DNA of 64,000 nucleotides from Eledone cirrhosa. Taxonomy: Eukaryota. Positions 4,461 to 62,045 of this stretch are shown one piece after another. How positions within the stretch are numbered: position 1 is the stretch's first letter; each line of letters starts with the position of its first letter. The notes under the pieces are model-generated. The model saw nothing but the letters and a program-made list of their open reading frames with translations, was not told where the DNA came from and did not search any database. A program made the translations under genes and the position numbers. The stretch is taken from assembly GCA_964016885.1 (NCBI GenBank), contig OZ024741.1, positions 81,220,001 through 81,284,000 on the forward strand, written 5' to 3'.

Positions 4461-5657
4461 GTGTGTGTGTGTGCGTAGGAAACCACTGGCAATGTACACA
4501 TATGTAAAACTTAATACAAATACTCTCAACTTTTTACATTGTGTTGATTGCTCTTTTCATTCGCGCGCGCGTGCGTGTGATATATATATATATAATTATG
4601 TACTGGCAAAGTAGGAATCTACTAAAAATAGACATGTAAGCAGCAAGTGAACTAGCACTAATTTTGGAGTAAAGAAAAAAAATCGTAAACCAAAAAATAA
4701 AATAAAAAATAAGTGAAAAAAAAAAGAATCAACAAAAAGTAAGAAGTAAAATTGTAAAAATGTAAATAAAAAAGAAACCGAAATCAAAAATTAAATTTGA
4801 AAAAAAAAAAAACCCTCAACTTAACCCTCCACAAACACACATGCACACACACAAACAGAAGCACAGATCTTTCATTGCAATCTATAAAATTGGTGGGTTT
4901 TTATCAAGTTCATTTCCTCTTAACGAGCAGTTGCAGAATGTATCAATTAGATTATTCGATATATTGGTAATAGCCCGAGTATATTGAAAGAATCAATTAT
5001 TGATATTACGGACGCAGGTTCTGTTTTGGAAGTGAGGGCAAGATGTGGCTGTAGCAGAGAAGAGATGAAAAACACTCCTTGTTAAATGTAGCAGTTAAAA
5101 TGTCTATGATTTGACTTCTTTAAAATTAAAATAAATAAATAATACTAAAATAAAATTATATAAACTAAGACAAAAATGTCGACATTCAAATATTTCAATT
5201 TCACAAGCTAAGGACATTCCTTGGTGAAAATTAACCAACAATTTGTGTAGAATTTTTCACCAATATTTCTATTGATCATTCTTTAGCATCTTTCACACCC
5301 TTTCACACATCTTTATCTCTCCTCCCTGTCTCAAACCTATTTTTCACCAATTTTCTATCTCACTTTTACTCTCTAACTCTCCTTTTTCGCCTATCTTTCT
5401 GTCACCTCCTTCTCTCTATCCATCTATATTTTATTATAACTGTGAAGCTATACCTGTGTTCCTGGTATAGCTTCCCATATATAATAAAATATACAACAGG
5501 CTAAGCTTGTATTGAGTTTTGCACAAGTCAACAATCCATCCATCTATCTGACACGTTTTTTTTTCTGTCTTTCACCATTCTATATCAAACTTTTGCACTT
5601 CTATCTACAATGTTCTTCCTCTGAGTTATATCTCTTTCTTTCTCTCTCTCTATATAT

Positions 5658-5747
5658 GAGAGAGAGAGAGAGAGAGAGAGAGAGAGAGAGAGAGAGAGAG
5701 AGAGAGAGAGAGAGAGAGAGAGAGAGAGAGAGAGAGAGAGAGAGAGA
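5658..5747. repeat. (GA)n microsatellite (others at ~22300-22384, 27295-27332, 49417-49456)
   Basis: Direct reading. Confidence 0.98.
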
Positions 5748-6904
5748 TCTTAGTTTCTTTCTTGCTCATGTAGTGATAGGTTTCAAAGACCAAGAAAAAA
5801 AGTTCAACTGCACCATAGCCTAAACCTCAGTATGGCATATCACCATGACTACCACAGCCTATATCCATAAATAGGAAACTAACCAAACAGCATACCACCA
5901 CTACCACCACAGCCTATGTCTATAAAAAGAGGATATGGTGTGTGTGTGAGTATGTATGCAATATTTATTGGAGAAAAAAAATTCAATTTATATAAATGAA
6001 AGTGCCCCATGGGTTATGGCTAACTGTGAGTTGAAAATTTGTACCTAGAAAATTCTCTACAAAAATCAAGTGTGGGAAGTTTCTTTTTTCTTTTGTGAAA
6101 GACCTACAGTAGTCATTGCATACCAGCCTCCCTTCTCCATGCTACTAATGTCCAAAGGAAAAGCAAGGGTTTATACAGTTTGGCACCAGTGATGTCACAG
6201 GTAAACTAAGAACTCAGTCCAAAAGATTTTTGGTTTGCTTTTTTTTTACATCCATTCCATCTTTAACTACAAACATCCTGTAATGATTTAGCAGAAAATG
6301 TCTAAAAAGGGGTTTGTTAATTCAAATATTTATAGTACCTTTACCAGCAGTCAGTCTGTTGTGAAAATTTTGTATGTGATGCACTTTTGTACTTTTCATA
6401 AAATATCTTTCTAATGCGGTTTTATGTGGTACAGGACTCTCTAAGAACAATCCAAAACTTAAACAGTCACACAACTGTATCTTGAAGATCATAGTAGATC
6501 ATGGGGAGGGGAAAATTTGAATTTTGGGTGAGAAGGCTTCTTGACTTCAGCAAATATAGATGTAGTGTATAACATCCATAGGGGTGCTTACTTCTCACAG
6601 TTTCTGAAACAGTTACACATTAATATACTAAGAAGTAGGGGAGATAGAGATGGAGAGAGGCAGAAAGAAAGTGAGAGAAAGGCAGCAAGAGTGAAAGAGA
6701 GAGAAAGGTGACAAGAGAGTGAAAGAGAATGGGAGGACAATGAGAAAGAGGGGGAGAAAGAGTGAGGGAAAGAGAGAGAGAAAGAGGAAAAGAGTGGCAT
6801 GATGTCAGAAAAAAACTGTGGTCTCCAGTCAACAGTTGATTAAGGTTATGTCTCTGCAGTGCCAGCTGTATGTGCATGTGTAATGAAATGATAAATGACA
6901 TTTA

Positions 6905-7170
6905 CATCTCATAGGAGGTTTCTTGGGTGTTTTAATGAGAGGAGCTGCACTCTTGTCATGGTATTGTTATTAAAGCTCACCTCTAAGTGGGTTTACTTAG
7001 CCTCCTCTGAAGTTTTATTTTATAGGTTTCTTGAGTGTTTTAATAATAGGGACCCCACTCCTATCATGCTGTTGAGGCTAACACCAGTTTAGGTTTACCT
7101 AGCCTCCTCTGAATTTGCATTTTATAGGTTTCTTGTGTGTTTTATTGATAAGGGCTCTATTACTATCATG
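6905..7170. repeat. Degenerate ~100-110 bp tandem repeat, about 2.5-3 units
   Basis: Recurring aggtttcttg.gtgtttta.t...tcatg and ggtttac.tagcctcctctgaa. Confidence 0.75.
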
Positions 7171-7292
7171 GGAGACAACATGAAATGAAGAATCTTGCTT
7201 AAGGACAGAATGTACTGCTTGGTACAGGAATCAAACTCATGACCTTGTGATCATGAGTCCTAACCACTACCTAACCACTAGGCCAACTGCCT
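7170..7292 (-). mobile_element. tRNA-head SINE, second family (related pieces ~9985-10105, 28210-28510, 33530-33690, 35590-35800, 39720-39800, 61340-61605)
   Basis: caacatgaaatgaag..tcttgct.aaggac..aa...ggaatcaaactc...ctaaccactaggcca; reverse complement gives A/B-box-like tggcctagtggttagg...gagtttgattcc. Confidence 0.7.
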
Positions 7293-7629
7293 ACTAGATT
7301 TTATTACACAGGAGGTTTCTCAGATATATAAACGATATTTGCTCCCAGTCCTACACATAAACATACCTAGTCACATGTTATGCCATGCTGATTCAGATTT
7401 GGAATTACATTAAAGTTACATGTCTGTGGAAAACTCAACCACTTATACATTAATTCACAAGTCAGACACCCAGTTGATTGAATAACTCATGATGGAGGAT
7501 CTGCACCCCCACCACCACCACATAGGTTTGAGCTAAATGATAGAAATTTGCTGTTTGAATAACTGTAGCTTAAATAATCAAAGAAACGAAATCAAATTAG
7601 ATCAATGAATTGCTTGTTTGGTAAATGAA

Positions 7630-7820
7630 TAATTGTTTCTAACATTGGCACAAGGGGGGGGGGGGGGGGCAACATTTAACTGTAACTTATTTTATCAATT
7701 CCGGGAGGGTGAAAGGGAAAGATGACCTTGCAGGGATTTGAGCTCAGAATGTAGAACATCTTAACTAAATAGTTCAAAGCATTCCGTCTGATGCTTTAAT
7801 GGTACTAACAATCCACTGCC
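7630..7820 (-). mobile_element. tRNA-derived SINE (family of 535-708)
   Basis: Reverse complement of core (ttttatcaattccgggagggtgaaagggaaagatgacct...gatttgagctcagaa) and tail (tttctaacattggcacaagg). Confidence 0.75.
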
Positions 7821-7994
7821 TTTGATAAATTAATAATAAAATATGTGATGTCTATGATGGAGCCACTGTGGAATTGGCAAGAACAGGTCAGTACTCTGTG
7901 GTTTGGTGGGGACAAAAGCAAATTTAGATTGAAGATATACAACTTGAAAATGTATCACAAATCTGTATTTGGAATTACAATCGCTAAAAACCAA

Positions 7995-60121: not shown

Positions 60122-60173
60122 GCTATATATATTTCGGTGACAGCCATTTTTGGCTGTGACCTCTTCAGGCAGT
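60122..60173 (-). ncRNA. Hammerhead motif, minus-strand copy with disrupted stem I
   Basis: Reverse complement actgc-CTGAAGA-ggtcacagcca aaaa tggctgtcacc-GAAA-tatatata-gc; the gcagt arm is replaced by a local duplication. Confidence 0.65.
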
Positions 60174-61104
60174 CTGAATTAATTTACTTGATTTTTGATT
60201 CTTCATTTTTGATTTCTCATTATTCATTTGTTATTTGTTTTCTGTTTTCTTCACTTTATCACCTTATATTTATATTTAAGTTGAGATTGGTTATAACACA
60301 CACACATTTTATCTTATTTTATTTGAATCTTCATTTTTATTTTTCACTTTTCATTTTCCATATTAATTTTTCATTTATTCTCTATTATTTATTTTCTGTT
60401 TTCTTCATTTTATTGCCTTCTATTTCTTCATATACATGGCAGAACCCCCCTCACCACCACCATGGGAGATGGTGGCAGGAGGGATGAAGAAACACACACA
60501 TAGATACTTCTAAATTGTCAGCAGCAGCAAGACATAAGCTGACCACAACACTACCAAAATAAGGGTAGAGGTCAGATGTACTTAATAGCAAACACAAACA
60601 CTACAGGGAGCCTCACCCCAGAAAGAATTTCTATAGACTTTGGACTGAGGAATGCTCTCAAAACTGACCAATGGGAAGTTTGACCTTACAAATCTTTATA
60701 ACATTGAGATGGGTATAACACACACACACATTTTATTTGATTATTTTATTTTATTTTGTTCCTTTACCATCTTATTCCTTCTACCACTTTATCACTTTTT
60801 TTTGAGCTGACTCCAACAACAACACCACTACCAACATAAGAATAGAGGTCAGATGTACCTAACAACAACTACAGATTGGCTTGCCTCAGAACGAACTTCT
60901 ATAGACTTTTGACTGAGGAATGTTCTAACAACTGACCAATGAGAGGAGAAGAGGCCCTTTGACGCTGAAATTTGTTTGTTTAAATTCATATGATTCCAGT
61001 TTCTCAGTGAAATAACAACCCAACCAGGAACTGGGCATATCAGAGTATTGACGAAGTTATACACCTCAACAACATGTGTACTCGTCTCTACCACACTAAT
61101 TCGG

Positions 61105-61159
61105 ACTGCCTGAAGAGGTCACAGCCAAAGATGGCTGTCACTGAAATATATATAGCAGT
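61105..61159 (+). ncRNA. Minimal type I hammerhead ribozyme
   Basis: actgc-CTGAAGA-ggtcacagcca aaga tggctgtcact-GAAA-tatata-TA-gcagt: 5-bp stem I, ~10-bp stem II, palindromic stem III, AUA site. Confidence 0.82.
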
Positions 61160-61609
61160 AATAAATGAAGCCAAATTTTAAACATTTGACTTATTTATTT
61201 TATTTTATTTTATATATATATATATAAGTGTTTTCACATTCTTTCATACATACATGAATGCATGTACATATTTAAATATATATGCATGTATACACACATG
61301 TATGCGTGTGTGTATATATATATATATATATATATATATAAAGACACCCTTCGGTCACAAATTACCATACCATGGGTTTTGTATTTAGAAAGTTCCTATC
61401 CGAGGTACAAGCTCGGGTAAAATTTTTGCAGCCCATGCACACCTCTCTCCTCACTCCTCTCTACCAATGTTGTTCAAGGGCAAGGCAAAAGCAGATAAGT
61501 TTGGCACAAGTGACATCACAACTCCAACAGAGTGAACTGCGGCAGGGTGAAATAAAGTGTCTTGTTCAAAAACAAAATGCACTGCCCAGTCCAGGAATTG
61601 ACTAACAAA

Positions 61610-61815
61610 CACATGCACCCTCGGATTCCTCTTAAACCCAGCTGGTCCCTCAGTTCATCCAAGCTTTGCCTTTCTTTCACATTTATGTTGCAAATCCAAT
61701 GAAACATAGCTGCTTGCTTTCTCTCCAGTCTACGCATGTCTTCAGCAGTTACAGTCCATCTTTCACTATCATGCAGCATCACACTTTGCACACAAGCGTC
61801 ACACAATTGTCCTTT
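61610..61815 (-). pseudogene. Decayed RTE ORF fragment
   Basis: LKGQLCDACVQSVMLHDSERWTVTAEDMRRLERKQAAMFHWICN..ERQSLDELRDQLGLRGIR. Confidence 0.85.
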
Positions 61816-61933
61816 TAAAAACATTCTAACACAATCTTTTCGAAGAACCTTTGTTAAGACCTTGTTCCAAACACCTGTGATGATTTTCAAGATTATAAAA
61901 AATGCTTCTGAAAGAGTTAATATATTTGATATA

Positions 61934-62045
61934 TTTTACCTCATGTATTCTCATTCCTCATTTCCAGCTGCCACCTCACAGGATTTTAAACAAAGAATAA
62001 TATATCTTACCTGAAAAATAACAAAAAAACATAAATATTAAAATA
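61934..62045 (-). other. Candidate recursive splice site (junction 62011/62010) with 71-nt cryptic exon and downstream donor
   Basis: Minus strand reads ttttaat..tttatgtttttttgttatttttcAG|GTAAGA; second donor GAG|GTAAAA at 61940/61939; stops in all frames. Confidence 0.55.

Follow-up and report, generated by a model that had tools for sequence, protein, structure and literature searches.

The minus-strand acceptor-donor motifs described here, from the octopod Eledone cirrhosa, are quite probably ratchet points of the Drosophila type, and the MAN1A intron that holds them is, on the evidence of its sequence, probably removed by recursive splicing. The stretch of DNA analysed (the window) comprises 64,000 nt of the forward strand (GCA_964016885.1, OZ024741.1:81,220,001-81,284,000), and tblastn, a genome search and Pfam (PF01532) place all of it (1..64000, minus strand) in the mid portion of a 290,530-nt intron of octopod MAN1A, the Golgi class I alpha-1,2-mannosidase of family GH47. 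The case bears on how introns of hundreds of kilobases are spliced in expanded animal genomes. Ratchet points are widely used in flies and hardly at all in vertebrates; cephalopod genomes match those of vertebrates in size and contain long neuronal genes, and no report of recursive splicing in cephalopods or other molluscs was found in the literature searched.

An earlier note on this DNA, made from its letters, had read the window as possibly part of a giant minus-strand intron, and the coding exons on either side bear this out. The first coding exon of MAN1A (contig 81396021-81395389, minus strand) ends in REKVKE with the donor GAG|GTAGGT, the second (contig 81104858-81104643, minus strand) starts with MMKFAW at the start of GH47, and tblastn with Argonauta P0002 and Octopus sinensis P0121 found MAN1A residues to be contiguous across the entire intron. 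No extra residues were present at this exon junction in those two or in three further full-length relatives, which excludes a constitutive coding exon and nothing beyond that. The claim that no coding exon lies between the two window motifs also held, on the basis of this contiguity and of a scan of the seven window ORFs, four of which match the reverse transcriptase or PHD-type finger of one RTE LINE while three have no match. A scaffold gap of 200 N (contig 81384323-81384522) is located inside the intron. Raw DNA reads span the intron continuously with allelic differences, and the joints seen in reads are repeat artefacts. Repeats account for at least 41% of the 290.5-kb intron, and dispersed homologues were found for 464 of 832 intervals sampled in the MAN1A region; that recursive splicing is a way of coping with TE-driven intron expansion, as had been suggested, is plausible.

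Within the window, YAG|GTAAG with at least 12 pyrimidines among the 17 upstream positions occurs exactly twice on the minus strand and never on the plus strand, and these are the same two strong motifs, 40,959 bp apart, that had been picked out by eye. Site B (62005..62045, minus strand; AG at 62012-62011, GTAAGA at 62010-62005) reads TTTTTC-AG|GTAAGA with its A at 62012, and possesses a branch-like TTAAT at -29, a 72-nt AG-free zone, a pyrimidine tract and TT at -6/-5; this single-copy site is matched without difference by a raw DNA contig, and no variant is listed there for the motif. Site C (21046..21091, minus strand; AG at 21053-21052, GTAAGT at 21051-21046), the strongest of the MAN1A intron sites, reads TTCTTCT-AG|GTAAGT with its A at 21053, has TTGAC at -38, a 53-nt AG-free zone, a long T tract and TT at -6/-5, and is covered by raw DNA contigs that likewise list no variant at the motif. 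Behind site B, a donor scan and frame-0 translation predict a cryptic RS-exon of 71 nt (61940..62010, minus strand) up to GAG|GTAAAA (61939) or, alternatively, one of 31 nt up to CCT|GTGAGG (61979), and both would disrupt the MAN1A frame. Behind site C only a weak donor (score 3.3) is found at +90, and a possible RS-exon of 172 nt with an in-frame stop (20880..21051, minus strand) is predicted up to AAG|GTATGT (20879). Dinucleotide shuffles of the whole window or of 100-1000-bp blocks gave a mean of 0.02-0.19 sites per minus strand and reached two minus-strand sites in 0-2 of 150 cases; under a strict five-pyrimidine pattern 21053 was the sole window match, and 8 of 100 shuffles yielded one match. 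The window motifs at 62012 and 21053 are real, beyond chance, and in the 1.7 Mb of DNA compared no homologue extended across either of them.

Most other candidates were rejected. The plain minus-strand acceptor placed by the earlier note at 5049 (5049..5070) is real as sequence, one of 12 acceptor-like minus-strand window sites scoring at least 12, but it is a decoy and not the 3' end of the intron, which is reached only after another 120 kb. TT at -6/-5 is missing from the decoy, no donor above 3 precedes +208, and no exon or good donor follows it. A weaker third window site at 34940, an AG|GTAAGG motif (34934..34965, minus strand), is formed by an RTE LINE (plus-strand ORF 34004-34942) at its 3' end, read in antisense, and this motif and its kin were dismissed as ratchet points because they occur on both strands across the locus. 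Also discarded were site -137008 (acceptor score 5.4, no TT, repeat-like, with dispersed homologues that carry the motif) and site -35512 (acceptor score 1.8), while site -110330, which has GTGAGC, scores 8.1 and is without TT, stands as a borderline candidate.

Outside the window, three more strong sites were found on the same strand, A (contig 81351751), D (contig 81173552) and E (contig 81137975), such that the proposed subdivision of the intron by ratchet points is largely supported, with five candidate sites in place of two. All five are sense and none is antisense, the split remaining 5-8 versus 0 at all six threshold pairs tried, and all five show YAG|GTRAG, an acceptor directly followed by a consensus donor, with TT at -6/-5. 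With approximate score matrices and thresholds fixed after the sites had been seen, GTAAG follows 5 of 232 strong sense acceptors against 0.185 expected (Poisson P = 1.6e-6) and 0 of 165 antisense ones. Sites A, D and E are short local paralogues, all outside the window, and with three of five sharing an origin the sites are therefore not independent. The resulting segments of 43.6, 69.7, 41.0, 67.5, 35.6 and 33.1 kb are more even than uniform placement would give (P = 0.003 for the shortest segment and 0.008 for the CV; overall range 0.003-0.014), and thus both the sense enrichment and the regular spacing anticipated in the earlier note were observed. Seven other MAN1A introns examined (2.6-36.5 kb) possess no strong acceptor-donor site. 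Hidden donors scoring 5.7-8.0 are located within 31-80 nt at four of the MAN1A sites, and only at +172 for 21053; the predicted cryptic exons of all of them would disrupt the frame or add a stop.

We propose that, during transcription, the first coding exon (ending in GAG) would be spliced to the AG of the first site, a step that exon definition across to a hidden donor 30-170 nt downstream might assist. Joining the two would recreate a donor, GAG|GTAAG(T/A), at least equal in strength to that of exon 1, with scores of 11.9 and 10.4 for the regenerated donor versus 10.2 for the original. This regenerated donor would outcompete the hidden one, so that the frame-breaking cryptic exon would be dropped. 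Were the step repeated at five sites before exon 1 joins the GH47 exon, the intron would be removed in six steps, and no trace of the ratchet steps would be left in the mRNA.

The same design may, as a rough estimate from motif excess, be in use at some hundreds of sites genome-wide. The tight motif has 102 matches versus 24 for its reversed control, an enrichment of the kind for which a genome-wide count had been suggested, whereas a control pattern with a non-G at +5 has 90 versus 190 reversed (odds ratio 9.0 against the tight motif). A TT-fixed pattern gives 119 versus 46 reversed, the GTAAGA class that includes 62012 is weakly enriched (24 versus 13), and a very tight pattern gives small counts of 4 versus 4. 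With MAN1A sites excluded, strand is shared by 12 of 13 neighbouring pairs less than 600 kb apart (P = 0.003) and by 9 of 10 once paralogous pairs are removed; a strong plus-strand motif at C4:229115285 breaks this rule and resembles the repeat-borne site -137008. Exon prediction in 200, 600 and 200 kb identified no host genes for the clusters at C3:79.0, C4:228-229 and C7:16.7 Mb, and sense orientation is therefore directly shown for MAN1A alone. Pfam gave no match above cut-off for the 19 candidate exons that came from C3, C7 or the sampled sites, and among the C4 candidates, judged by eye only, no host exons were recognised in ~600 kb.

Neither TT at -6/-5 nor a downstream donor was used to select the tight-motif sites. 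A donor scoring at least 8 is found at +30..+90 in 15 of 40 sampled sites, versus 3.1% of random places (P = 5e-13) and 7 of 235 matched acceptors; it is missing from the remaining 25, and 5 of 20 further sites bring the total to 20 of 60. TT is present in 33 of the 40 sampled genome-wide sites and, counted by eye, in 85 of the 98 tight-motif matches listed versus 46 of 90 non-G controls (P = 1e-7). Further differences concern YTRAY (32 of 59 sites versus 28 of 104 in the comparison set) and the AG-free zone (median 66 versus 27 nt), and T exceeds A on the motif strand in the flanks of 31 of the 40 sampled sites.

The cassette carrying A, D and E has, by genome search, exactly three copies, all inside the MAN1A intron, and all three, at 72-77% identity, retain AGGTAAGT; a dispersed transposon delivering ratchet points was rejected given that the cassette is local only. 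Nor are neighbouring sites generally copies of one another: copies make up 6 of 39 same-cluster pairs, and these pairs come from 4 of 19 clusters. Local-only paralogy is found in 46 of 1090 non-dispersed random intervals (32 of 368 for the MAN1A region), so that copying of sites does not stand clearly above background. In the C12 paralogue pair, a 96% identical block ends just past a donor at +127. Rfam gave 0 matches, in the window as in nine site-bearing loci, which led us to discard the idea that the cassettes contain a known RNA such as a snoRNA. It is a tentative and rather doubtful extension that octopods use fly-type recursive splicing genome-wide and gain ratchet points by cassette copying as introns grow, whereby a cassette of 150-560 bp (branch point, acceptor, cryptic exon and donor) would be copied, without change of intron or orientation, to places at a distance of 35-330 kb. 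If true, stepwise intron removal would, with insects and sea urchin included, occur in all three bilaterian branches, and the protostome ancestor may then already have used it in its MAN1A gene. Where new ratchet points come from could be tested on the paralogous cassettes, and more than 100 site coordinates, five in one mapped intron, are open to RNA testing.

The main rival, which we consider unlikely, is that regulated poison exons or alternative non-coding exons happen to start with GTAAG and have the sites as their acceptors, being included at times and otherwise skipped in one step, with no re-splicing. Such exons would fit the strong enrichment of downstream donors, the exon-like end of the C12 block and the frame disruption or stop predicted for every MAN1A cryptic exon, yet ordinary exons need no initial consensus donor and, relative to the control ratio, G at +5 is favoured nine-fold; even spacing of the sites, moreover, is seen in the giant intron only, and at the five MAN1A sites regenerated donors score 10.4-11.9 versus at most 9.2 for hidden donors within 250 nt. 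Far less probable is that the motifs belong to nested minus-strand non-coding transcripts or alternative terminal exons and not to MAN1A intron removal, as the lack of recognised host exons at C4 might hint, since this leaves unexplained the donor consensus right behind the acceptor, the even spacing between two MAN1A exons and the TT, and the Rfam result also speaks against it. An origin of the motifs by chance in T-rich DNA, or as passive transposon pieces, is largely refuted, for although two repeat families carry a weak AG|GTAAG (the RTE 3' end and the -137008 / C4:229115285 type), the finding was picked from many windows and local duplicates are common at the locus, the repeat-borne motifs occur on both strands without TT, neither window motif has a homologue across it, the A/D/E cassette is confined to the MAN1A intron, the three sites outside the window have the strand predicted for them, and a downstream donor, for which the sites were not selected, is in excess.

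Recursive splicing at ratchet points is thus the reading we favour. FBgn0259170, a fly gene grouped with alpha-Man-Ib, is presumably alpha-Man-Ia, the fly counterpart of MAN1A. For FBgn0259170, Pai's table (PMC6110457) lists a site of high confidence, in an intron of 44 kb. As at the ratchet points of Drosophila (Ubx, kuz, luna and Bx; 10.1101/006163; PMC8605326, PMC6110457), a consensus donor directly joins the acceptor at the octopod sites, with TT at -6/-5 and a strong pyrimidine tract; a hidden exon that would break the frame is predicted, with a donor at its downstream end, and several sites are evenly spread in a very long intron. They differ in scale, with an intron of 290 kb versus at most 133 kb in flies and segments of 33-70 kb versus a mean of 18 kb and a maximum of 63.6 kb (Duff, 10.1101/006163), the C4 sites at 117-187 kb apart being spaced far wider than that maximum. 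TT is less strict (33 of 40 in a motif-selected sample versus 196 of 197 fly ratchet points; 10.1101/006163), the predicted 172-nt RS-exon of site C exceeds the ~50 nt given as typical of flies in the part of PMC8605326 used, some octopod sites are local paralogues, and the octopod sites are known from sequence alone.

A computed excess of RP-sites in long introns of insects and sea urchin was described by Shepard 2009 (PMC2773006), and, so far as the cited parts of that paper go, our set resembles theirs in having combined sites in introns over 50 kb and a sense over antisense excess, with a MAN1A density of 1.7 per 100 kb near the fly value of 2.2 under different scoring; in those parts, cryptic donors and TT form no part of the tests and the table of 13 species contains no mollusc or other lophotrochozoan. 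Among long introns, that of locust NPF1 is given as 230 kb in the excerpt of PMC8892266 used. Mammalian RS-exon splicing, as covered by the relevant section of PMC8605326, shares with our proposal exon definition by way of a downstream donor, and two donors that compete, whereas in mammals no more than nine sites are definite and fully suppressed and many RS-exons are expressed, and the E. cirrhosa genome looks fly-like, with many intronic sites and frame-breaking cryptic exons predicted. That an octopod shows a signature like that of flies suggests that it is vertebrates that depart from the rule.

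Exon prediction on the window (G000:C2:81220001-81284000 in the 3.0-Gb genome) with 200 kb fetched on either side revealed a minus-strand run of GH47 alpha-1,2-mannosidase exons (Pfam E 1.8e-21) that begins at -115142, 115 kb past the left window end, where coordinates beyond the window are genome position minus 81,220,000. The closest relatives were Octopus vulgaris (96%) and Argonauta (85%), which suggests that the animal is an octopod. The first coding exon of this gene, MAN1A, lies at 176021-175389, 111 kb past the right window end, and represents residues 1-228 of the Argonauta protein P0002 and 1-225 of the O. 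sinensis protein P0121, with both alignments resuming gap-free in the next coding exon. Because these flanking residues are contiguous, and because a genome search returned a single copy of the first exon that is collinear with the remaining exons, the window falls within a single phase-0 intron of 290,530 nt, in line with the possible giant minus-strand intron of the earlier note. A single gap, of 200 N, interrupts this intron 11 kb from the 5' end. In O. vulgaris, the MAN1A model P0001 (CAI9735996.1, 458 aa) lacks the entire first coding exon present in P0121 and begins 10 residues ahead of MMKFAW, as if the gene model were broken at the same giant intron.

Within the window, only 2 of 16 AG|GTRAG sites possess a strong pyrimidine tract, and these are the two minus-strand motifs that the earlier note placed 40,959 bp apart: site B (A at 62012, AG|GTAAGA) and site C (A at 21053, AG|GTAAGT), both consistent with raw DNA contigs. 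Such a pair was rarely reached by chance: four block sizes were used for dinucleotide shuffling, with 150 shuffles per size, and the minus-strand mean was 0.02-0.19 motifs, with at least two motifs in 0-2 shuffles of 150. A strict five-pyrimidine pattern matched site 21053 alone, and 8 of 100 shuffles also gave a match. The view that no convincing coding exon lies between the two motifs agrees with the long ORFs tested (Pfam match in 4 of 7), which were LINE fragments or unmatched. The acceptor noted further downstream, at 5049, is one of 12 similar window sites and has no exon behind it.

Scoring every AGGT in the giant intron with approximate splice matrices, at thresholds picked after the sites were seen, revealed five strong sites on the minus (sense) strand, A (131751), B (62012), C (21053), D (-46448) and E (-82025), and zero antisense. 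This split was 5-8 vs 0 under all six threshold pairs, and three of the five sites lay beyond the window yet on the predicted strand. GTAAG followed 5 of 232 strong sense acceptors (0.185 expected by chance, P 1.6e-6) and 0 of 165 strong antisense acceptors. The sites divide the intron into segments of 43.6, 69.7, 41.0, 67.5, 35.6 and 33.1 kb, and their placement is more regular than expected by chance (P 0.003-0.014). Both the sense excess and the regular spacing sought in the earlier note were seen in this intron. No strong site was found in the seven downstream MAN1A introns examined (2.6-36.5 kb). All five sites carry TT at -6/-5 and an AG-free zone of 40-72 nt, four have YTRAY, and the intron's sense strand holds T > A in 22 of 28 ten-kb bins (by eye).

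Counting genome-wide against controls also revealed a motif excess, with 102 matches to T-Y10-N-YAG|GTAAGT vs 24 to the reversed pattern, whereas the same acceptor with GTAAHT, our control, gave 90 vs 190 (odds ratio 9.0). Fixing TT gave 119 matches vs 46, and the GTAAGA version only 24 vs 13. Among 100 listed matches, with two MAN1A sites excluded, neighbours <600 kb apart shared a strand in 12 of 13 pairs, or 9 of 10 once three paralogous pairs were removed; the control list held 5 close pairs, each with identical 21-mers. That list also contains four identical minus-strand AG|GTAAAT 21-mers spaced 42-69 kb apart (G000:C3:62519271-62692803), which could be segmental duplications arrayed in tandem or copies of a cassette with a weak donor.

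Of the 102 sites, 40 were fetched at about regular steps down the listing, and 15 of these had a donor scoring >=8 at +30..+90, compared with 3.1% of positions drawn at random and 7 of 235 matched acceptors. This peak was limited to +30..+90, and 5 of 20 further sites, picked as neighbours, had such a donor. TT at -6/-5 occurred in 33 of the 40 sampled sites and, counted by eye, in 85 of 98 listed sites vs 46 of 90 control-list sites. With one duplicate locus excluded, branch-like YTRAY was present at 32 of 59 sites vs 28 of 104, while AG-free zones measured 66 nt vs 27 nt. In 31 of 40 cases the flanks had more T than A along the motif strand. Across 1.46 Mb of contiguous DNA at four loci, strong sites numbered 14 minus vs 1 plus, or 6 vs 1 after removing the 8 minus-strand anchors used to pick the loci. 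Sense orientation is established for MAN1A alone, since host genes were not found at the other three loci. At G000:C4:227.98-229.16 Mb, five strong minus-strand sites span 1.2 Mb. The 600 kb read there contained nothing recognisable as a coding exon, and the sites possibly lie in an intron >500 kb.

In all sequence-level features examined, the MAN1A sites match Drosophila ratchet points, and the host gene and its intron, the make-up of the motifs, their strand bias and spacing, the excess across the genome and the cryptic donors support, at that level, the recursive splicing first suggested for this window. By analogy with the fly model, exon 1 would be spliced co-transcriptionally to each site's AG in turn, with each join regenerating a donor, GAG|GTAAG(T/A). 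This regenerated donor scores 11.9 or 10.4; the native donor scores 10.2, and no hidden donor scores more than 9.2. Because the regenerated donor outscores the hidden ones, the cryptic exon between each AG and its hidden donor is presumably skipped. Each of these cryptic exons would bring a frame shift or added stop, and the sites might instead be acceptors of poison exons, a near relative of the RS-exon model (the cryptic exon skipped after a ratchet point) that we consider improbable. Under recursive splicing, our preferred reading, A-E would act as ratchet points.

Sites A, D and E share 72-77% identity over about -150..+115, with the upstream match partly inside a common repeat and AGGTAAGT kept at all three. 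A genome search with their core returned exactly three copies, A, D and E, and comparison within 8 kb revealed no broader collinear similarity. Paralogue pairs in the same orientation occur on C3 (89% identity, -82..+72, 52 kb apart), C12 (96%, -63..+136, ending just past a donor, 57 kb apart) and C2 (94%, -131..+418, 330 kb apart). All site copies share orientation, vs an inverted copy in 23 of 46 random local duplicates. Paralogues were present in only 4 of 19 clusters, both window sites are unique, and a tight search pattern favours paralogues. Local-only copies occurred in 4.2% of random non-dispersed windows and 8.7% of those in the MAN1A locus. Copying of sites is observed, with no clear rise over this background. 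The C12 copies (C12:45297982 and C12:45354574) hold a 127-nt stretch with stops in all three frames between acceptor and donor, which differs at only 2 positions across 57 kb and has flanks that do not align.

RTE-type LINE fragments lie in the window on the plus strand (2199-4083, 34004-34942, 62274-63208) and minus strand (40905-41291, 61516-61935). In these elements the reverse transcriptase is followed by a PHD-like zinc finger, and their antisense 3' end, AG|GTAAGG, looks like a weak ratchet point on whichever strand it falls. A second repeat-like sequence, which carries TTGCAT-AG|GTAAGT without TT, was seen at G000:C2:81082992 (L027) and G000:C4:229115285 (L192), with one copy ~670 nt before a real MAN1A acceptor. 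A ~2-kb segment has three copies, all oriented alike, in the MAN1A region of G000:C2 (about 81296300-81298300, 81400100-81401700 and 81406800-81408700) and is absent from the other fetched loci. A 652-codon open frame within the intron (L001:6269-8227, plus strand) looks like a reverse transcriptase with GIY-YIG, presumably a Penelope-like element. Young tandem repeats of 97-100% identity are found in the window at 22452-22774 (160-bp unit), 30555-30945 (48-bp), 18822-18991 (22-bp) and 35112-35343 (112-bp).

The fly gene FBgn0259170 is, we presume, alpha-Man-Ia. Pai et al. (PMC6110457), who also describe fly sites as evenly placed, list a high-confidence site in a 44-kb intron of this gene, and PMC6721284 groups the gene with alpha-Man-Ib. 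Duff et al. (10.1101/006163) reported 197 fly sites in introns of 11-133 kb, with segments of 18 kb on average and TT in 196 of 197 ratchet points, and a ~50-nt cryptic exon with donor competition is described in the available portion of PMC8605326. Shepard et al. (PMC2773006) found that sites were in excess on the sense strand in four insects and in sea urchin, with no significant excess in vertebrates and no mollusc in their species set. A 230-kb locust intron is reported to be recursive (PMC8892266). The available text of PMC7222433, on octopus genes of great length, does not use the term 'recursive'. No report of recursive splicing in octopus or other molluscs was found in the literature searched, whose coverage mostly excluded subscription journals. 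Judged by their sequence, the MAN1A sites would be candidate ratchet points of the familiar fly type, here in another lineage.
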